Below, piece by piece: positions 2,673 to 46,713 of a stretch of 64,000 nt of DNA (positions within the stretch are counted from its first letter, which is position 1; each line of letters opens with the position of its first letter). A program made the translations under genes and the position numbers. A model generated the notes under the pieces. It had not been told where the DNA came from, made no database searches, and saw only the letters and a list, made by a program, of their open reading frames with translations. Source of the stretch: an uncultured Acidimicrobiales bacterium (lineage in GTDB: Bacteria > Actinomycetota > Acidimicrobiia > Acidimicrobiales > SHLQ01); NCBI GenBank assembly GCA_964390555.1, contig CAYMJU010000125.1, forward strand, positions 53,940 through 117,939, read 5' to 3'.

Positions 2673-4418
2673 TCAGCCCTGCCCCCTCGGATCGGGCTGC
2701 GCCGGGTGCACCATCACGTCGCTGTTCGACGCACCCGCCGGGACCATCGGGAACACCTTCTCACCCGAGTCGACCCGGAACTCGAGCACGACCGGCCGGT
2801 CGTCGACCTCGTTGGCCTTGCGGATCGCCGGTTCGACCTCTTCGGGAGATTCGACGCGCAAGGCGAAGCACCCCATGGCCTCGGCCCACTTGACGTAATC
2901 GGGCAGGCTCGGCGACAGGTACACCTCGCTGTAGCGCTCCTCGTAGAACATCTCCTGCCACTGCCGGACCATGCCCAGGTAGCCGTTGTTCATCAGCGCC
3001 ACCTTCACCGGTATGCGCTCGGTCGACGCCGTCACCAGCTCCTGAGCGGTCATCTGGAAGCAGCCGTCGCCGTCGACGGCCCACACCATCTTGTCGGGTC
3101 GGCCGACCTTGGCGCCGATGGCCGCCGGGATCGAGAAGCCCATGGTCCCGAGACCGCCCGAGTTCACCCACGTGTAGGGGTGGCGGAACTTCCAGTACTG
3201 GCTGGTCCACATCTGGTGCTGGCCCACGCCCGAGCAGACGATTGTGTCCTCGGGGGTGTTGTCGCGGAGCTGCTCGATGACGAACTGCGGCTTGAGCGCC
3301 TCGCCCGGATCGGACGGCTCGTAGTGGAGTGGATAGGTCTCCTGCCACCCGCTTATGCGACTCTTCCACGCCGATCGGTCGGGCTGAGTCGACGGCCCGC
3401 CCATCTCGGCCAGGGCGGCGACCAGCCCCTCGATCGCGAGCCGGCAGTCGCCCTGGATTCCGACGTCGGGCCGGCGCACCTTGCCCAGCTCGGCGGGATC
3501 GATGTCGACGTGGATGATGCGGGCATCGGGGGCGAAACCACCCACCTTCCCGGTCACGCGGTCGTCGAAGCGGCTCCCCAATGCAATCAGCAGATCCGAC
3601 TCCTGCATCGCGGTGACGGCGGTGTAGTTGCCGTGCATGCCGGGCATGCCGAGACACAGCGGGTGGTCGTCGGGGAACGCCCCGCGTGCCATGAGCGTGG
3701 TGACCACGGGGATGCCGGTGAGCTCGGCCAGCTCCCGCAACGCCTCGGCGGCGCGGGCCTTGAGGATGCCGCCACCGGCGTAGAGCACCGGTCGGGTCGC
3801 CGAGCAGATCAGCTCGGCGGCGGCCCGGACCAGCTCCGGATCGGGCGTGTCGTTCGGGTGGTAGCCCGGCAGATCGACCGAGTCGGGCGTGTACCACTCC
3901 ATCGCCGACGCCGGGCTCCTCGGGTCGACGATGTCCTTAGGGATGTCGACGAGCACTGGGCCGGGACGACCGGTCGTGGCGATGTGGAACGCCTCGTGGA
4001 TCACCTGGGGGATGTCCTGGGCCGAGGTGACAAGGAAGTTGTGCTTGGTGACCGCCATGGTGATGCCGGTCGTATCGCACTCCTGGAACGCATCGGTGCC
4101 GATAGCCGCCAGCGGGACCTGGCCGGTGATGCAGACCATCGGCACCGAGTCCAGGTAGGCATCGCACAGTGGGGTGACGATGTTGGTCGCCGCGGGGCCC
4201 GACGTCACCATCGCGACACCAGGGCGGCCGGTGACGTGGGCGAACCCCTCGGCCATGTGTCCGGCACCCTGTTCGTGGCGCACGAGGATGTGGCGTATCG
4301 GCGAGTCGATGATCGGGTCGTACACCGGCAATATGGCGCCGCCGGGCAGGCCGAACATCACCTCGACGCCCTCGTGCTCGAGGGCCTTGACGAGTGCTTG
4401 TCCACCGTTCATCTTCAT
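2673..4418 (-). CDS. ilvB: Acetolactate synthase large subunit
   Basis: ORF 2673-4499 trimmed to ATG 4418 (MKMNGGQALVKALEHEGVEV). ThDP motif GLGTMGFSIPAAIGAK...DGDGCFQM is present. The stop abuts the ilvN start. Confidence 0.93.
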   Translation of the reverse strand: MKMNGGQALVKALEHEGVEVMFGLPGGAILPVYDPIIDSPIRHILVRHEQGAGHMAEGFAHVTGRPGVAMVTSGPAATNIVTPLCDAYLDSVPMVCITGQVPLAAIGTDAFQECDTTGITMAVTKHNFLVTSAQDIPQVIHEAFHIATTGRPGPVLVDIPKDIVDPRSPASAMEWYTPDSVDLPGYHPNDTPDPELVRAAAELICSATRPVLYAGGGILKARAAEALRELAELTGIPVVTTLMARGAFPDDHPLCLGMPGMHGNYTAVTAMQESDLLIALGSRFDDRVTGKVGGFAPDARIIHVDIDPAELGKVRRPDVGIQGDCRLAIEGLVAALAEMGGPSTQPDRSAWKSRISGWQETYPLHYEPSDPGEALKPQFVIEQLRDNTPEDTIVCSGVGQHQMWTSQYWKFRHPYTWVNSGGLGTMGFSIPAAIGAKVGRPDKMVWAVDGDGCFQMTAQELVTASTERIPVKVALMNNGYLGMVRQWQEMFYEERYSEVYLSPSLPDYVKWAEAMGCFALRVESPEEVEPAIRKANEVDDRPVVLEFRVDSGEKVFPMVPAGASNSDVMVHPAQPDPRGQG

Positions 4419-4617: not shown

Positions 4618-5775
4618 ATGACTTCCGCGCCCGCGTCCGACCCAGTGCGGGCGGCGCTGCCGGCCATGATCCTCGGGCGGTTCGTCGGCAATGTGATGTT
4701 CCGGGCAGTGTTCCCGTACACGCGAACCATCGCCGACGAGCTCGGCACCTCGTTAAGCACGGTGGGTTGGTTGCTGAGCGCCCGCGAGCTCGCGGGCGTG
4801 TCGGCCTACCCGCTCGGACCGGTGATCGACGGTGGGCGCCATCGACGCTGGATGGTGCTGATGACCGGCCTGGGCGCGCTCTCGGGCCTGCTGCTCGCCT
4901 TCGGCACGTCAGTGTGGATCGTGGCCTCGGCCATGGTTCTGTTCGGCGTCGCCAAGCCCGTCTACGACACGGCGATGGGCGCCTGGATCGGCGAGAACGT
5001 CCCGTTCGCACGGCGGGGCCGAGTCGTCGGACTCACCGAGCTGTCCTGGGCGGGCGCGTTCCTCGTGGGTCTGCCTCTGCTCGCTCCTCTCGTCGAGCGG
5101 CACTCGTGGAGGGCGCCCTACGTGGTGCTCTTCGTAGCCCAAGCCGGAGCTGGGCTGTGGCTCTGGCGCCGGCTCGCTCCCGACCGACCGCGCGCCGCGC
5201 ATGCCTTCAGTTGGCGGTTCACGCTCACGCCCGGTGGCATCTGGCTGTTCCCGGCGGTCATGGCTCTGGTGGTCGGGCATCAGCTCACTGTGGTCACCTT
5301 CGGTGCCTGGCTCGACGATGAACACGGCCTCGACGCCGGGGGCCTCGGTCTGGTCGCGTTCGCCCTGGGGGTTGCCGAGCTCGTCGGCACGCTCGTCGTG
5401 GTCGCCGTCTCCGATCGGGTCGGCAAGCGTCCGACCATGATCGCCGGATGCCTGACGATGATCCCGGCCATGCTCCTGTTCGGCGCCGCGTCATCGACCA
5501 CAGCGAGCGTGGTCTTGGTGGCGATAGTGCTGGGCGGGTTCGAGGTCGCCTTCATCGCCTCGCTGCCGCTCACGACCGAGATCTCTCCCAACGCCCGAGC
5601 CGCCGTCCTCGGTGCCATGGCGACCGGGTGGACGCTCATGCGTGCGATCGGGTCGGTGGCCGGCACGGTGCTCTACGACAAGGCGGGCATCGGACCCGTC
5701 GGCGTCGTCGGGGCGGTCGCGGTCGGTATCTGCGTCGTCGTGATCGCCGTGATGTTCGAGGAGCCTGCCACGTGA
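4618..5775 (+). CDS. MFS-type transporter
   Basis: 385-aa multi-pass hydrophobic protein. The loop GENVPFARRGRVVGL resembles MFS motif A. Confidence 0.75.
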   Translation: MTSAPASDPVRAALPAMILGRFVGNVMFRAVFPYTRTIADELGTSLSTVGWLLSARELAGVSAYPLGPVIDGGRHRRWMVLMTGLGALSGLLLAFGTSVWIVASAMVLFGVAKPVYDTAMGAWIGENVPFARRGRVVGLTELSWAGAFLVGLPLLAPLVERHSWRAPYVVLFVAQAGAGLWLWRRLAPDRPRAAHAFSWRFTLTPGGIWLFPAVMALVVGHQLTVVTFGAWLDDEHGLDAGGLGLVAFALGVAELVGTLVVVAVSDRVGKRPTMIAGCLTMIPAMLLFGAASSTTASVVLVAIVLGGFEVAFIASLPLTTEISPNARAAVLGAMATGWTLMRAIGSVAGTVLYDKAGIGPVGVVGAVAVGICVVVIAVMFEEPAT

Positions 5776-20570: not shown

Positions 20571-23928
<3,358 letters not shown>

Positions 23929-25991: not shown

Positions 25992-27121
25992 GCGGCCCGA
26001 TCGCGGAGTTGGTGGACCGACGCGACGAAGGCGTGGACGGCATCGTCGACATCGGCGGAGGTGCTGGAGTGACCGAGGGTGAGCCGCACCGACCCGGAGA
26101 TCTCGGCCAGCGGGACCCCCATCGCCGCCAGCACGTGGGATGGCTCGTTGGCCCCGCTCACGCACGAGGCCGCGGCCGATGCGTCGACACCGTGGCGTTC
26201 GAGCAGGAACAGCAGGGCCTCGCCCTCGACGTCGGCCAGGCGCACATGGGCGTGGCCGGGGAGCCGATTTGCTCGGGAGGCGCGGCCCCCGGTCTCTACC
26301 AGGCCCGGCACCTCGGCCAGCAACCGATCGGCGAGGCCGTCGCGTAGGGCGGACACGCGAGCCGTGGTCGCGACCCGCTGTTCGACCAGCTCGCCGATCG
26401 CCGCGGCCAACGCGACCACGCCGGGCACGTTGTGGGTACCGGCGCGGCGGCCCCGCTCCTGGCCACCACCGTAGGTGCGGCTGGCGATCACGACATCGGG
26501 GCCGACGGCCAGGGCGCCCACCCCCTGGGGGGCGCCGAGCTTGTGACCGCTGATCGACACCAGGTCGACGATCTCGCCGAGGTGGGCGAGGTCGAGCCAG
26601 GGCATGGCCTGGACGGCGTCGACGTGGATCAGCGCGTTCGGCGCCGCGCGGCGAACGATCGCCGACACGTCGGCCAGCGGCTGCACGATCCCCGTCTCGT
26701 TGTTGGCCGCCATGACCGACACGAGCGATACACCATCGTCGAGGTTCGCCTCCAGCGCCTGGAGGTCGACGGTGCCGTCCGAGATGACCGGAACGAGCTC
26801 TCCTCCGAGGGCGACGACCGCGTTGAGCACCGCGTGATGTTCGATGGCCGAGCAGAGAACCCGCCCGCCGCGACGGGCGTGCACGCCGAGGACCGCGAGG
26901 TTGTCGGCCTCGGTCCCACCCGACGTGAAGATCACCCCGCCCGGGTCGAACCCGAGTGCGGCGCCCACGACGTCGCGGGCATCGTCGAGTGCTCGCCGGG
27001 CCTGGCGAGCCACCCGGTGTGAGCCTGACGGGTTACCGGCCCGATCACTCATCCAGGGCAGCATCGCGGCGATGGCCGCCGCGCGCACCGGAGTCGTCGC
27101 GGCGTGGTCGAGGTACGCCAT
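25988..27121 (-). CDS. iscS: Cysteine desulfurase (NifS/IscS class)
   Basis: The track starts at TTG 27127, but ATG 27121 (MAYLDHAATTPV) is more likely. The PLP-lysine motif ISGHKLGAPQGVGAL is present, and the gene is coupled to mnmA. Confidence 0.9.
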   Translation of the reverse strand: MAYLDHAATTPVRAAAIAAMLPWMSDRAGNPSGSHRVARQARRALDDARDVVGAALGFDPGGVIFTSGGTEADNLAVLGVHARRGGRVLCSAIEHHAVLNAVVALGGELVPVISDGTVDLQALEANLDDGVSLVSVMAANNETGIVQPLADVSAIVRRAAPNALIHVDAVQAMPWLDLAHLGEIVDLVSISGHKLGAPQGVGALAVGPDVVIASRTYGGGQERGRRAGTHNVPGVVALAAAIGELVEQRVATTARVSALRDGLADRLLAEVPGLVETGGRASRANRLPGHAHVRLADVEGEALLFLLERHGVDASAAASCVSGANEPSHVLAAMGVPLAEISGSVRLTLGHSSTSADVDDAVHAFVASVHQLRDRAA

Positions 27122-27146
27122 ACCCAAAGCCTAGAACCCGCGCCAA

Positions 27147-27245
27147 TAGGTGAGTGCTCGAGGTCCGATCGGTCTCGCTCGCCTGCTGGCGCAGGCGACA
27201 AGTACCACTGTCACATTGGATGGCTCGCCTATCGGCTCGCCCTCT
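27147..27245 (+). repeat. Unclassified ~100-nt interspersed element, copy E1
   Basis: 27164-27245 matches the reverse complement of 39851-39932 at 76/82 positions with no gaps (hand alignment). The terminal TAGGTGA is shared. E1 contains the hairpin TCGCCTGC-tggc-GCAGGCGA (27179-27198) and the palindrome CCGATCGG. Confidence 0.85.
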
Positions 27246-39680: not shown

Positions 39681-39715
39681 GGCGCAACTGTCGAGCACCA
39701 CATGTCGCTCACGTA

Positions 39716-39729
39716 GGGCCCAAAGTCCC
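39716..39729. promoter_or_regulatory. Candidate DevR/DosR-like operator in the devR / ATPase divergent region
   Basis: GGGCCC-AA-AGTCCC lies about 43 nt upstream of the devR-like ATG (39680) and about 110 nt upstream of the ATPase ATG (39833). Confidence 0.45.
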
Positions 39730-39832
39730 ACGGATCATCCCGGAGTTTGTTGCCCGGGTGACCATCGGCCCTGGCCCGGACTGGTCGCCCGACCCACGAT
39801 GAGCACCACCACGATGCAGAGGGGATGCGCGG

Positions 39833-42406
39833 ATGAACGATCCGGGGCTCAGAGGGCGAGCCGATAGGCGAGCCCTCCAATGTGACAGTGGCATTTCTCG
39901 ACTGCGCCAGCAGGCGAGCGAAACCGATCGGAAGCTGAAACAGTCACCTAGCGATCCGGGGCTCAGCGCACTGGAGGCCGCGAGGCGACTGGCCGACGAC
40001 GGACCGAACGCTGTCCCGCTGCCCTCGCCACCGCGGCTCCCGTTACAGATCCTCCACGCCGTCCGCCAGCCATTGTCCCTCGTGCTTGTCGCCGCGGGCC
40101 TGGCCACGGCACTCGTCCTCGACGAGCTCGTCGAGGGCCTGGCCATCGGTGGCGTGGTGGTACTGAACGTCGCCGTTGAGGTGGTGCTCCAGCGGCGAGC
40201 AACATCGGCCCTGGCTGCGCTCGCCGAGCTCACCAGCCCGAAGGCGACCGTCCGGCGCGCCGGTGTGGCGCGGGTCATCGACGCCGCCGATCTCGTCCGA
40301 GGCGATGTCGTCGAGCTGGCCGCGGGCGATCGGGCACCCGCCGACATCGAGCTCACAGAAGGCTCGCCCCTCGTCGTCGACGAGTCGATCCTGTCGGGCG
40401 AGTCGGCGCCGGTGACACGTCATGCCGATGGCGATTCTGAAGAAGCGCTCGTCCGGGGCGGAACGATGGTGCACCAGGGATCCGCCTCGGGTGTCGTGGT
40501 CGCCACCGGAGCCGCGACCGCGATCGGCAGCATCGCCCGATCCATCCAGACCGAAACCACACCGCCGCTCGTCGACGAGCTCCGCTCGATCGCGGTGGCC
40601 CTCAGCGTGGGAGCCATCGCGTTGGGAACGGTGCTCGGTCTACTCGTCGCCCGACGGGGAGACGCCGACGCGGGCGACGCTCTGCTGGCCGTCGTCGCCC
40701 TGTCGGTCGCCGCCATACCCGAGGGCCTCCCAACCACGGTGATCGCTGCCCTGGCCCTCGGCGCACGAGCGATGGCTCGACGCGGCGCCATCGTGCAGAA
40801 CCTGGCCGCGATCGACGCTCTCGGCGCCACTTCCGTGCTGTGCACCGACAAGACGGGGACGATCACGACGGGGCGACTCCGACTCGATGGAGTCCATCCG
40901 CTCGATGGTCGAGGTGACGACCTCTGGACGGCCATTGCCCACTGCCATGACGCCCACGACGGGCTCGGCGATCCGATAGACGTGCTGGTCGCGGCCGCGG
41001 CGGCCGATCGAGGGGTACCGGCAGGCGTCCGGCTGAACAGCCGCCCCTTCGACGGGTTGGCGCGGTCGATGGCCGTCGTGACGCTCGACTCGGACGCGAC
41101 GCCGGTCCTCATCGTCAAGGGCGCGCCCGAAGGAGTGTTGACGCGCTGTGACCCCGGACCGGACGCGGTGCGCCTCGCCGAAATGGCCGAGGGATTGGCC
41201 GCGGCCGGTCAACGAGTGATCGCCTACGCCAGCCGAGCCAGCGACGACCTCGACGCGGCGGGCCTGCGGCCGCTGGGCGTCGTCTCGTTCAGCGAGGAGA
41301 ACAGGCCCACGGCGGCGCGCACAGTGCAAGGGTTTCACGACGCGGGCATCCGCGTCGTCATGGCGACCGGTGACAGCCCGATCACCGCCACGGCGGTCTG
41401 CCGCCGTGTGGGACTTCCGGTGAGAACTGTCTATTCGGGCCTCGACGACCACCATCACGGCGCCGATCTGCGAGACGCCGATCTGGTCGCGAGGGTCGAT
41501 CCCCTCACCAAGTTGGCCCTGATCGACGCCCACCGCTCCGCGGGTCACGTCGTCGCCATGATCGGCGACGGGGTCAACGACGCTCCGGCCCTCAAGCGCG
41601 CTGACGTGGGTGTGGCGGTGAGCGGTTCGGGGACCGACGTGGCGCGGGCCGCGGCCGACGTCGTCTTGACCGATGGCGATCTCGAGACGCTGCTCGTCGG
41701 CATCCGAGAAGGACGGCGCATCTACCGGAACCTCAAGGTGGCGACGGGCTACCTGTTGTCGGGCAACGTCAGCGAGGTGCTGGTGTTCGTAGGGGCACTG
41801 ATCGTGTTCCCCGACGTCGCGGTGCCGCTCCTGCCGCTTCAGATCCTGTGGCTGAACCTGATCACCGACGGCCTGCCGGCGATCGTGCTCGGGATCGACG
41901 ACCCGCCGCACGAGCCTCTGCACTCGCGCCCGCGCGGGCCAGGTGATGAGATCCTGGCTCGACCGGCGCAGCTCCGGATCGCGGGACGAGCGACCGTCAT
42001 CACCGCGATCGTGCTGGCCTCGACGTGGCTCGTGACCGACGGTTCGGCTGAAGGATCGATCAGGACCCAGCTGCTGTTGTCGCTCGGCTCGGCCCATATG
42101 TTGCTCGCGCTGATCGCCCGATCCGAGCGCTGGACGTTCGAACGCGGCTGGGCGCGTTACAAGCCCGTGTTGCTCGCCATCTCCGGTTCGGCCGTCGTGC
42201 ACGCGCTCGCGTTCGTCACGCCCCCCGTGCGCTCGTTGCTGGACCTCGAACCCGTGCCCGCCGATGGGTGGTTGGCCGCCGTCGGTGGCCTCGTCGTCTT
42301 GCTGGTCGCGGTCGATGGCGCCCGCGCCCTCGACCGTCTTCGATCGAACCGCGGCGCTCGGTCAGGGCCAGACCTGGGTGCCGGCCAGACCGCGGCAGGC
42401 CGCTAA
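39833..42406 (+). CDS. P-type cation-transporting ATPase (P2, CtpF-like), N-terminus interrupted in frame by repeat element E2
   Basis: 857 aa with CTDKTGTITTG, MATGDSP and GDGVNDAPALKRADVG. Codons 7-44 are the inserted element plus the duplicated DPGL codons. Confidence 0.9.
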   Translation: MNDPGLRGRADRRALQCDSGISRLRQQASETDRKLKQSPSDPGLSALEAARRLADDGPNAVPLPSPPRLPLQILHAVRQPLSLVLVAAGLATALVLDELVEGLAIGGVVVLNVAVEVVLQRRATSALAALAELTSPKATVRRAGVARVIDAADLVRGDVVELAAGDRAPADIELTEGSPLVVDESILSGESAPVTRHADGDSEEALVRGGTMVHQGSASGVVVATGAATAIGSIARSIQTETTPPLVDELRSIAVALSVGAIALGTVLGLLVARRGDADAGDALLAVVALSVAAIPEGLPTTVIAALALGARAMARRGAIVQNLAAIDALGATSVLCTDKTGTITTGRLRLDGVHPLDGRGDDLWTAIAHCHDAHDGLGDPIDVLVAAAAADRGVPAGVRLNSRPFDGLARSMAVVTLDSDATPVLIVKGAPEGVLTRCDPGPDAVRLAEMAEGLAAAGQRVIAYASRASDDLDAAGLRPLGVVSFSEENRPTAARTVQGFHDAGIRVVMATGDSPITATAVCRRVGLPVRTVYSGLDDHHHGADLRDADLVARVDPLTKLALIDAHRSAGHVVAMIGDGVNDAPALKRADVGVAVSGSGTDVARAAADVVLTDGDLETLLVGIREGRRIYRNLKVATGYLLSGNVSEVLVFVGALIVFPDVAVPLLPLQILWLNLITDGLPAIVLGIDDPPHEPLHSRPRGPGDEILARPAQLRIAGRATVITAIVLASTWLVTDGSAEGSIRTQLLLSLGSAHMLLALIARSERWTFERGWARYKPVLLAISGSAVVHALAFVTPPVRSLLDLEPVPADGWLAAVGGLVVLLVAVDGARALDRLRSNRGARSGPDLGAGQTAAGR
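39838..39966 (-). mobile_element. Element copy E2 (39851-39950, inverted relative to E1) with flanking perfect 15-bp direct repeats
   Basis: CGATCCGGGGCTCAG occurs at 39838-39852 and 39952-39966, 114 nt apart. The interior is homologous to E1. No transposase lies nearby and I found no terminal inverted repeats. Confidence 0.6.
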
Positions 42407-45915: not shown

Positions 45916-46713
45916 GTGACAACCAACCGATCAACCCGACCCCACCGTCGCGGACCACTCGTGGCCGTCGCGATTGTCGTTCTCGTGGCCAGTGCGTGTG
46001 GCACTGACGACGACTCCGCATCGACGACGTCGAGTGCCCCGGTCAATCCCGCGGATACTTCCACCACGCTCGAGTCGACCACCACGCTCGAGTCGACCAC
46101 GACAGCCGAGTCCACGACGACGGCTGAGTCGACCACGACCGTGACGCCGGGCCCGGTGCAACCCGCAGTGTGGCCCGCGGCGGGCGTGGTCTTCGATTCT
46201 CCCGAGTCGGCGGCCGAAGACTTCGTCGCCCAGGTTCTCGGTGTGCCACCAGTCCTCGGCGAGTTCGTACTGGGCGACTCGCGAAGTGGCGAGATCGAGG
46301 TCATCTTCCCCGGGGAGGGCGAAGGGGCCACGCGCATCGTGCGAGCCACGCTCTTCCTTCGCCAGCTCGGTCCCGACGACGGGTGGTTCGTACTCGGCGC
46401 GGCGAGCGACGGAGCGTCGATCGACTCGCCCCAGGCTGGGACCACCGTCGGTGCGGGAGCCTTGACCGTATCCGGACTAGCACGCGGGTTCGAGGCACTT
46501 GTCGTCGTCGAAGCCTTTGTCGCCGGCGACGCTGTCCGTCTTCTCCAAAAGATCGCGAGTGGCGGGTCGTTCGAAACCCCCGAACCATTCTCGGCCGAGG
46601 TCGATCTGTCGGGCGTCGCTCCTGGTGAGACGGTCCTGCTGCTCGTGCGCGGCGGAGTGGGACTCGAGACCGACCCCGGCGACTTCACCGCCATCCCGGT
46701 CGTGATCGGGTGA
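45916..46713 (+). CDS. Secreted lipoprotein with S/T-rich repeat linker and Ig-like C-terminal domain
   Basis: GTG start. The signal peptide plus lipobox is LVAVAIVVLVASAC, followed by GTDDD, an STTT(L/A)E repeat region and a beta-rich domain (Gmad2-like by impression). Confidence 0.6.
   Translation: MTTNRSTRPHRRGPLVAVAIVVLVASACGTDDDSASTTSSAPVNPADTSTTLESTTTLESTTTAESTTTAESTTTVTPGPVQPAVWPAAGVVFDSPESAAEDFVAQVLGVPPVLGEFVLGDSRSGEIEVIFPGEGEGATRIVRATLFLRQLGPDDGWFVLGAASDGASIDSPQAGTTVGAGALTVSGLARGFEALVVVEAFVAGDAVRLLQKIASGGSFETPEPFSAEVDLSGVAPGETVLLLVRGGVGLETDPGDFTAIPVVIG
46060..46140. repeat. 18-bp imperfect tandem repeat, about 4.5 copies, in frame in the lipoprotein linker
   Basis: The units are TCCACCACGCTCGAGTCG, ACCACCACGCTCGAGTCG, ACCACGACAGCCGAGTCC and ACGACGACGGCTGAGTCG, then ACCACGACC. 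They encode (S/T)TT(L/A)ES repeats. Confidence 0.8.

Follow-up and report, generated by a model that had tools for sequence, protein, structure and literature searches.

A MITE-like repeat of Acidimicrobiia probably inserted in frame near the start of a P-type ATPase gene, with an atypical right end

In an uncultured Acidimicrobiales bacterium, codon 6 of a P-type ATPase gene is followed by a stop-free segment of 38 codons that lies between two perfect copies of a 15-bp direct repeat. This arrangement raises the question of what the segment is, how it came to lie within an otherwise intact gene, and whether its long flanking repeat reflects a new mode of mobilisation. We addressed this in the 64,000-nt stretch of DNA that contains the gene (the window, to which all coordinates refer) and in public genomes and metagenomes. 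The copy within the ATPase gene is referred to as E2, a second copy in the window as E1.

The ATPase gene and its direct repeat

39833..42406, + strand: P-type ATPase ORF (Ca2+-type, P2-like), 857 aa, 38 of them from the inserted codons (from the ORF list)
39819..39824, + strand: Shine–Dalgarno (SD)-like GAGGGG, 8 nt 5′ of the ATPase ATG (read from the sequence; function putative)
39838..39852, + strand: direct repeat copy 1, CGATCCGGGGCTCAG; belongs to the native gene, in which it encodes N-D-P-G-L, and the element starts with its last G
39952..39966, + strand: direct repeat copy 2, CGATCCGGGGCTCAG; stands where the outer right inverted repeat would be expected and codes for D-P-G-L-S, with the conserved GLS motif

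The ATPase ORF reads through the inserted segment without a stop codon. Its translation matches the Pfam families E1-E2_ATPase, Hydrolase, Cation_ATPase_C and Cation_ATPase_N, and the DKTGT, SGES and GDGVNDAPAL motifs are all intact. Identity to homologues reaches at most 57%, and a protein identical to the 857-aa product is present at NCBI (P0001). Beyond codon 1, the first in-frame ATG, GTG or TTG is codon 81, in the region of the first membrane segment, in agreement with the initial annotation, which had found no alternative start after the element until well inside the conserved region. In homologues, 0–23 residues precede the conserved GL[ST]xxEA motif, and the 38 inserted residues are absent from every one that we compared. 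Removing the element thus restores a canonical N-terminus, as had been claimed, and the insertion reading stands against the proposed counter-evidence of homologues with a conserved 38-aa segment. Because the homologues lack these residues and their N-terminal tails vary, the site is permissive; the insert lies where the N-terminal tail varies naturally. The SD-like sequence suggests that the ATG at 39833 is the native start, and with both retained, a functional ATPase with 38 additional N-terminal residues (predicted N-terminus MNDPGLRGRADRR...) is most likely still produced.

The direct repeat is exact, as first described: CGATCCGGGGCTCAG has two mismatch-free occurrences in the window, offset by 114 nt, and no others. 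When the window was simulated as a first-order Markov sequence, an exact 15-mer recurred within 300 nt only 0.16 times per 64 kb. Both copies resemble native gene sequence, with the SD-like GAGGGG before the ATG on one side and the GL[ST]xxEA motif after copy 2 on the other.

A MITE-like repeat family in Acidimicrobiia

39852..39954, + strand: MITE copy E2 as far as it matches the family profile (positions 1–105 of ∼114; nhmmer, E = 3e-10)
39849..39851, + strand: left TCA of the 3-nt target duplication, within a C-TCA-G site (family statistics)
39852..39877, + strand: left terminal inverted repeat (TIR) and hairpin, GAGGGC-GA-GCC-GATA-GGC-GA-GCCCTC
39898..39917, + strand: central GC-rich hairpin, TCGACTGC / GCCA loop / GCAGGCGA, one mismatch (from the fold)
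39947..39951, + strand: what is left of the right inverted repeat on its inner side, CCTAG (alignment to the right-end consensus CCTATCCGCTCGGGCCC and end of the profile match)
39963..39965, + strand: right TCA of the 3-nt target duplication
27134..27244, − strand: E1, a full-length 111-nt intergenic copy of the same element (nhmmer, E = 4e-12, profile positions 1–113)

An nhmmer profile built from 40 copies detected two copies in the window, E1 and E2, which are 93% identical over 82 nt. The right end of E1 lies 13 nt 5′ of a cysteine desulfurase start codon (ATG), and the flanks of E1 are TAA and TAG. Both copies are sense-oriented at the 5′ ends of genes; the E2 hairpin begins 19 nt past the ATPase ATG.

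The family-wide 20-nt core, which lies within the left TIR and hairpin (39855–39874 in E2), has >190 matches in public genomes and metagenomes, mostly from Acidimicrobiia. At least 71 of these loci come from species-representative genomes, chiefly MAGs of Acidimicrobiia, Ilumatobacteraceae and Iamiaceae, and at least 120 from metagenomes, ∼30 of the latter belonging to an unrelated eukaryotic repeat. Several MAGs carry at least 7–10 copies, every one differently flanked. The initial annotation had thus rightly taken the in-frame segment for a repeated, presumably mobile element. We analysed two sets of full copies (41 and 46), which are 108–135 nt long (mostly 110–114 nt) and contain no transposase ORF. 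Their ends form imperfect TIRs of ∼17 nt, GGAGGCGAGCCGATAGG and CCTATCCGCTCGAGTCC, that match at 12.0 of 17 positions on average, compared with 5.9 in controls (95th percentile 8); the earlier statement that the element lacks terminal inverted repeats therefore does not extend from E2, which scores 8/17, to its family. A central hairpin differs in sequence in every subfamily and is constant in position. RNAalifold on a MAFFT alignment recovered the invariant left hairpin alone, and we claim no formal covariation statistic because the alignment does not bring the central hairpins of the subfamilies into register.

A 3-nt flanking duplication was present in 19 of the 41 copies, compared with 5.4 ± 2.0 in permutations (maximum 12 of 1000), and the second set replicated this result (24/46 versus 10.5 ± 2.7, maximum 20); the perfect duplication is limited to about half of the copies. 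The duplicated triplets (TGA, TAA, TTA, TCA, TAG, TAT and CAA) vary from copy to copy and yet co-vary between the two sides, which identifies them as a target-site duplication (TSD). Most matched triplets are TGA, TAA, TTA or TCA, with TAG and a few non-TNA triplets among the rest, and the target is usually TNA or TAG within a C-TNR-G site. In a genome with 69% GC, targets of this kind correspond to stop codons, and this could simply account for copies piling up right after genes. Tandem arrays sharing a TSD are fairly common (L040, L055, L068, L155, L175 and L186). Outside such arrays, none of the ∼87 other full copies has a long flanking repeat. The flanking genes are different in every copy examined, and among ∼90 copies we found none besides E2 that is convincingly intragenic: ORFs spanning other copies are spurious frames in GC-rich sequence or start beyond the element. 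An insertion would be in frame and stop-free by chance with a frequency of about 0.44 × 0.47, that is, in ∼0.2 of cases. The initial annotation had proposed looking for flanking duplications and an in-frame bias among the other copies; the survey revealed 3-nt duplications and E2 as the single convincingly intragenic case.

With TIRs and a short TSD, the anatomy of the family is that of a classical MITE. The family is widespread in Acidimicrobiia and apparently undescribed, the core sequence having zero full-text matches in the literature. Rfam gave no match in the window at the gathering threshold or in 39700–40100 at E ≤ 10, blastn of the element against a plasmid collection gave none, and neither did a metagenome scan with the subfamily-specific pattern GAGCCNTCCAATGTGACAGTGG.

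The mobilisation mechanism, which the initial annotation regarded as unknown, can provisionally be placed for the family as a whole. IS1031 termini begin GAG or GGA, as do those of the family. The enzyme that moves these elements is most likely a DDE transposase generating 3-bp duplications of the TNA kind (IS5 family, IS1031-like, predicted to be of DDE_Tnp_1 type), an assignment drawn from TSD length and terminal bases only, because neither an autonomous element nor a transposase with the same ends turned up in the ∼1 Mb of fetched loci. In these loci, TIR pairs spaced 0.4–3.5 kb apart and ORFs beside copies without a right end led only to ordinary genes. The IS1031 group recognises a three-nucleotide target (PMC2516522), and a 3-bp TAA/TTA TSD is documented for Tourist/PIF-Harbinger MITEs such as mPing (PMC2836001).

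The atypical right end of E2

Against this background, a TSD of 15 bp, as had been supposed, is not supported; the repeat instead decomposes into the family-typical TCA, a single G and 11 nt that are anomalous, a composition seen in E2 alone. The left boundary of E2 is that of the family, as E1 and 40 further copies show. On the right, family homology stops a few bases past CCTAG, where the profile match ends at 39954; the outer right repeat is gone, and its place is taken by 11 nt that reproduce the upstream flank exactly. The E2 right end thus reads ...CACCTAGCGATCCGGGGC, and that of E1 CCTATTGGCGCGGGTTC. TIR complementarity, 12/17 in E1, is the lowest among 40 copies in E2 and falls within the control range, because the right end has been lost or has diverged. 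When upstream flanks were compared with the copy's own right end, E2 matched at 11/11 positions, a value reached by 0 of 4000 random comparisons. The family mean (∼5.0/11) is at the random level (5.06), and we therefore rejected flank/right-end similarity as a general property of the family.

Taken together, we consider it probable that E2 is a non-autonomous MITE-like copy that inserted at a C-TCA-G site in the ATPase gene and whose right end was aberrantly replaced by a copy of the upstream flank. The element would have entered this site in codons 6–7, with the left end and the TCA duplication forming canonically. During or after integration, the outer 11–12 nt of the right TIR would have been lost and 11 nt of upstream target copied in their place, giving the 15-bp direct repeat and a net insertion of 114 nt. 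The corresponding empty-site allele would be ATGAACGATCCGGGGCTCAGCGCA, i.e. ATGAACGATCCGGGGCTCAG joined directly to CGCACTGG. How the extra 11 nt arrived is conjecture: an aberrant or one-ended integration could have been resolved by host repair, or replication could have switched template from one TCAG copy to the other at the hairpin base. Having lost one transposase-binding end, E2 is probably immobile now.

It is doubtful, though conceivable, that E2 is the first example caught of a second, non-canonical integration route of the family, in which one TIR is stripped and 10–15 bp of target are duplicated. If so, one-ended or end-degraded insertions completed by host repair, or hairpin-driven template switching, would leave immobilised copies, and those in frame could become fixed as N-terminal peptide or mRNA-hairpin modules; E2 might then tune translation or regulation of the ATPase. 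We found no second clear case among the copies. Two were examined as possible parallels and rejected: L030 is a TIR-like fragment beside an internally deleted copy, and the 10-mer match at L111 occurs at chance frequency.

Alternatively, the upstream repeat could be the remnant of a tandem array, in which two head-to-tail copies shared a TCA and a deletion spared nothing of the upstream one but its final 11 nt. CGATCCGGGGC would then be the genuine right end of the E2 sub-lineage, and the 15-bp repeat would consist of this right end, the TSD and a G. The frequency of TSD-sharing arrays in the family fits this explanation, as does L030, whose fragment lies directly 5′ of the deleted copy. Moreover, E2 has the canonical length of 111 nt (+3), equal to E1, which could mean that its right end is genuine, and 10 of 17 positions of that end agree with the family consensus. 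However, the upstream repeat begins 5 nt past the ATG behind a well-spaced SD-like GAGGGG, and, joined to the downstream sequence, it specifies a natural N-terminus that includes the GL motif, all of which a deletion remnant would have produced by luck. Upstream of the repeat, there is no further element homology, local alignment scores equalling the shuffle mean, and the low TIR complementarity of E2, within the control range, also speaks against it. We therefore regard a tandem origin as unlikely.

Very unlikely, in our view, is an element without inverted repeats that natively generates a 15-bp TSD by some mechanism as yet unknown. The perfect repeat around E2, its lack of a convincing right inverted repeat and the failure to find a transposase in the fetched loci would all suit such an element, but the TIRs and 3-nt duplications of the family are clear, E1 is flanked only by its two triplets, and the ∼87 other full copies lack long non-tandem flanking repeats.

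We give still less credence to the possibility that nothing was inserted, the segment being an N-terminal extension of ancestral origin or a cis-regulatory leader RNA and the true ATPase start lying downstream. The E2 segment does fold stably (−39 kcal/mol, z = −2.6), and the position and orientation of E1 and E2 at gene 5′ ends would be compatible with a leader. Against this, nearly identical DNA is found in hundreds of unrelated contexts besides an unrelated intergenic site, no homologue has the 38 residues, and the earliest alternative in-frame start is codon 81, in the region of the first membrane segment. A riboswitch or leader RNA identity of the family was likewise rejected, given the lack of Rfam matches even at the relaxed threshold and the different flanking genes of every copy.

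Finally, mis-threading of the repeat into the gene during assembly, conceivable for what is probably a short-read MAG and for a genomic repeat that breaks contigs, has a negligible probability: two Logan contigs of SRR9952630, from an independent assembler, carry the left junction (...ATGAACGATCCGGGGCTCAGAGGGCGAGCCGATAGGCGAGCCCT) and the right junction (CCGATCGGAAGCTGAAACAGTCACCTAGCGATCCGGGGCTCAGCGCACTGG...), respectively, and match base for base 20–50 nt into the element, so that the arrangement is not an artefact of a single assembly, and a typical read is longer than the element, although both contigs terminate inside it without overlapping, which leaves continuity across its middle to the MAG assembly alone.

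Comparison with known mobile repeats

An in-frame MITE landing is a known kind of event, and fusions of this type have been called ‘not unusual’ (PMC10969869, PMC5896051); a 15-base flanking duplication is unusually long. The evidence from E2 points to no new mobilisation mechanism. Its value lies elsewhere: E2 is a clean natural case in which a mobile element would add 38 residues to the permissive N-terminal tail of an otherwise intact ATPase, and a small case study of a MITE becoming fixed coding material. For annotation, it means that the long N-terminus of this ATPase is not homologous sequence. The family itself comes from an abundant, little-studied class known mostly from MAGs, where it breaks assemblies and may mislead gene callers.

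The closest general likeness is to other bacterial MITEs, such as QMITE1 and QMITE2 of Coxiella, the Correia elements of Neisseria, ERIC and MITEAba12 of Acinetobacter. These are likewise small, non-coding and multicopy, with TIRs, short target duplications whose sequence varies and transcripts that form hairpins, and they too are mostly intergenic with occasional in-frame fusion to host ORFs (PMC10969869, PMC5896051). The present repeats differ in sequence family and host class, and E2 differs further in lacking one end and in its atypical 15-bp repeat. REP/BIME sequences and the IS200/IS605-derived PATEs are also short, hairpin-rich, highly repeated and intergenic, often just after stop codons, but they lie next to a fixed tetra- or pentanucleotide that is not duplicated. 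Since the variable triplets here match across the two sides far above permutation levels, we rejected a REP or IS200/IS605-type identity.

The resemblance to Rickettsia palindromic elements (RPEs) proposed in the initial annotation is a fair analogy for E2, which is similarly a palindromic repeat of ∼100–150 bp that lies in frame within a gene and would contribute a peptide at a permissive site. It does not carry over to the family, in which in-frame insertion is no habit: nearly half of RPE copies are in frame (PMC10969869), whereas E2 is the only convincingly intragenic copy of ∼90. TIRs and TSDs are evident in the present family, and the hosts and base composition are unrelated to those of RPEs. 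With IS1031-type IS5 elements and their MITEs, and with Tourist/PIF-Harbinger elements such as mPing, the family shares the 3-bp TNA-type duplication (TAA, TTA, TGA, TCA); it differs in also using TAG and a few non-TNA triplets, and its probable affiliation with this group is read from the TSD and the terminal bases.

Junctions of the ATPase insertion

E2, a MITE-like copy inserted just after the start codon of a P-type ATPase gene, is bracketed by a perfect 15-bp direct repeat. As described in the initial annotation, an exact search of the window found CGATCCGGGGCTCAG at 39838–39852 and again at 39952–39966, at a spacing of 114 nt, and nowhere else; first-order Markov simulations of the window put the chance expectation for a perfect 15-mer repeat at a distance of up to 300 nt at 0.16 per 64 kb. 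The frame opened at ATG 39833 was likewise found to read through the element, as a stop-free ORF of 857 aa ending at 42406, and the absence of an alternative start soon after the element also held, the next in-frame ATG, GTG or TTG being codon 81. The same 857-aa protein is present at NCBI (P0001, 119-kb contig). Each junction of E2 is real, since two contigs of an independent assembly (run SRR9952630) reproduce them base for base, one the left and the other the right. Both contigs end inside E2 without overlapping each other, exactly where a genomic repeat would interrupt assembly, and continuity across the middle of E2 comes from the MAG assembly alone. An intergenic difference upstream of the ATPase (G at about 39785, A at position 96 of L074, a Logan contig of SRR9952630) indicates that the two assemblies sample slightly different genotypes, with the insertion in both.

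E2 belongs to a family of MITEs

A profile search detected one other family copy in the window:

E1: 27134–27244, reverse strand, full-length copy flanked by genes for a cysteine desulfurase and a CBS-domain protein, with 93% identity to E2 across 82 nt

Common to E1 and E2 is the 20-mer GGCGAGCCGATAGGCGAGCC, found at no fewer than 120 loci in metagenomes and at least 71 in species-representative genomes, roughly 58 of the latter listed loci belonging to Acidimicrobiia, Ilumatobacteraceae, Iamiaceae or other Actinomycetota MAGs. Among the genome matches listed, single MAGs carry 7–10 or more copies. By comparing copies with their flanks, we defined a left end of GGAGGCGAGCCGATAGG or GAGGGCGAGCCGATAGG followed by a variable core, whose GC-rich hairpin differs in sequence among subfamilies, and a right end of ...CCTATCCGCTCGAGTCC. 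No terminal inverted repeats (TIRs) had initially been found; the family ends are in fact imperfect inverted repeats, with a mean of 12.0/17 positions matched (range 8–15) against 5.9/17 in the control (95th percentile 8), and E2 itself, at 8/17, is the lowest among 40 aligned copies. Furthermore, the triplet left of the element was repeated on its right in 19 of 41 copies (permuted pairs 5.4 ± 2.0, maximum 12 in 1000) and in 24 of 46 copies of an independent metagenome set (10.5 ± 2.7 permuted, maximum 20). As these triplets vary between copies (TGA, TAA, TTA, TCA, TAG, TAT, CAA) yet co-vary between sides, they represent a target-site duplication (TSD). Small size, no coding capacity, TIRs, TSD and copy number combined identify the family as a MITE. 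Rfam contains no family for the element, and a full-text literature search with its core sequence gave no match. Apparently, this is a previously undescribed Acidimicrobiia MITE family, one copy of which has become fixed within the reading frame of an ATPase gene and carries an atypical 15-bp flanking repeat.

The central hairpin keeps its structure and not its sequence between subfamilies (TTTCGGCTGC/GCAGCCGAAA, TTCGCCAGG/CCTGGCGAA, GTCGCCTGC/GCAGGCGAC, GGCGGC/GCCGCC; columns ~58–85 of the family alignment A3; window 39898–39917 and, on the reverse strand, 27180–27200), the MAFFT alignment there being too poor for a formal covariation test. Several fetched public loci (L numbers: L040, L055, L068 (JAUTXP01), L155, L175, L186) hold head-to-tail arrays with one 3-nt duplication in common. 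Since the element starts with G and ends with C, each insertion recreates C/TNA/G targets at its own borders, which may explain repeated insertions. For about 9–15 of 57 copies (e.g. L010, L015, L022, L042, L043, L052, L071), the left duplication (TAA/TGA/TAG) coincides with, or lies a few bases from, the stop codon that ends an upstream gene of the same orientation; genomes of 69% GC offer the preferred target chiefly at stop codons, a 'safe' landing site for the element. The right end of E1 is just 13 nt (27121–27133) upstream of the likely cysteine desulfurase ATG (MAYLDHAATTP...), so that E1 has replaced most of the 5′ leader and expression must begin within, or read through, E1. An internally deleted mini-copy (L030:3060–3125) has its left repeat fused directly to a right-repeat-like CCATCGGCACG and adjoins a second CCATCGGCACG, whose reverse complement holds the ATG of a DUF2510-like ORF (MADPAGWYSDP...); we dropped it as a parallel to E2 and read it as a TIR-like or tandem arrangement.

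AT-rich contigs (L012:1958–2011, L033 about 5085–5140 and some 30 loci from metagenomes, among them L076, L083, L087:6282–6345 and L159) show GGCGAGCCGATAGGCGAGCC in a second setting, capping a perfect hairpin of roughly 64 nt (GATCTGTATGGGCGTTTACAAT ... ATTGTAAACGCCCATACAGATC), with compensatory stem changes between copies and no Rfam match. The LINE-like reverse-transcriptase fragments also present on L087 make it probable that these contigs come from a eukaryotic host and that their repeat is a separate family; the MAG that contains L012 and L033, labelled 'bacterium', could then include eukaryotic contamination. In Flexivirga (Actinomycetes; L013 about 5440–5530, reverse strand; L054 about 4090–4150), GGCGAGCCGATAGGCGAGCC forms part of an element that is longer and palindromic (GTCGAGTAGGGCGAGCCGATAGGCGAGCCCGTATCGAGACC ... 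reverse complement), perhaps a related lineage of MITEs from beyond Acidimicrobiia. Two in-gene tandem repeats in the window (21271–21364, three 24-nt units; 46061–46132, three 18-nt units) have no relation to the element.

Origin of the 15-bp repeat

The left boundary of E2 is canonical (GGGGC TCA / GAGGGCG...), with TCA repeated on the right, and the family profile matches only as far as 39954 (positions 1–105 of about 114). Where the outer right repeat would be expected stands CGATCCGGGGC, the same 11 nt that precede the left TCA. The 15 bp, initially interpreted as a TSD, therefore consist of 11 anomalous nt, the 3-nt duplication canonical for the family, and one G, which opens the element in the left copy of the repeat and belongs to the flank in the right copy. 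Across the family, the upstream flank matches the element's own right end at a mean of about 5.0/11, equal to random genomic sequence (5.06/11), so the 11-nt copy is not a family trait; 11/11 was reached in 0 of 4000 random comparisons. Among about 87 other full copies, long flank repeats were confined to places where two elements lie in tandem with a common TSD (L040, L055, L068, L155, L175, L186).

Both copies of CGATCCGGGGCTCAG look like native gene sequence. The upstream copy begins 5 nt past the ATG, which has an SD-like GAGGGG 8 nt ahead of it, and the downstream copy supplies the G-L codons of a GL[ST]xxEAxxRLxxxGPN motif whose L is invariant, and whose G is nearly so, in 13 aligned homologues. 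Removing 114 nt yields MNDPGLSALEAARRLADDGPN, with a 4-residue tail like the MTPDHGL of the closest homologue, P0002 (57% identity), in agreement with the earlier view that excision restores a canonical N-terminus. Given these native-looking copies and the resemblance to P0002, we favour a true duplication of a 14–15-bp target around an element that would have lost its outer right end. The public protein set contains no empty-site allele, its nearest ATPase homologue being only 57% identical, and a metagenome scan with a subfamily-specific pattern returned no further copies of E2's own sub-lineage. The extra 11 nt could stem from one-ended or end-degraded integration completed by host repair, or from a polymerase template switch between two TCAG copies brought together by a hairpin; both routes are plausible, and the event is beyond reconstruction from one allele. 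It is quite improbable that the repeat is instead the remnant of a tandem element copy: although E2 is of exactly canonical length (111 + 3, as E1) and retains at its right end 10/17 matches to the family consensus, the SD, ATG, frame and motif would all have to be fortuitous, and no element homology occurs farther upstream of the repeat.

Gene consequence, mobilisation and known in-frame elements

The ATPase contains the Pfam domains E1-E2_ATPase, Hydrolase, Cation_ATPase_C and Cation_ATPase_N and keeps every P-type signature (DKTGT, SGES, GDGVNDAPAL). Since its homologues have variable tails of 0–23 unconserved residues ahead of the GL motif, the 42-residue N-terminal tail is likely tolerated. 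The insert is predicted to fold into stable hairpins (−39 kcal/mol, z = −2.6) that begin 19 nt past the ATG and could affect translation. The in-frame, stop-free state is not strong evidence of selection: with a mean of 2.65/6 frames open throughout and length plus TSD divisible by three in 20 of 43 family copies, its chance is near 0.2, before survivorship bias against disruptive insertions. Long ORFs spanning other copies are either arginine-rich GC artefacts or genes whose start lies after the element.

The TNA-type 3-bp duplication and the termini starting GAG or GGA, which we take to resemble those of the IS1031 group, point to mobilisation by a DDE transposase like that of this IS5-family group. 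The co-varying flanking duplications rule out mobilisation of the IS200/IS605 or REP type. The IS1031 group recognises a target of three nucleotides (PMC2516522), and eukaryotic relatives moving Tourist MITEs produce 3-bp TAA/TTA duplications (PMC2836001). As roughly 1 Mb of fetched loci contained no autonomous partner, membership of the IS5/IS1031 family is not established.

In-frame fusions of MITEs and ORFs are 'not unusual', as exemplified by Rickettsia palindromic elements (RPEs), ERIC, BOX and QMITE elements (PMC10969869, PMC5896051). E2's family differs from RPEs in anatomy and in behaviour, none of the other copies examined being convincingly intragenic; the RPE analogy drawn in the initial annotation thus holds for the outcome in E2, an in-frame insertion.
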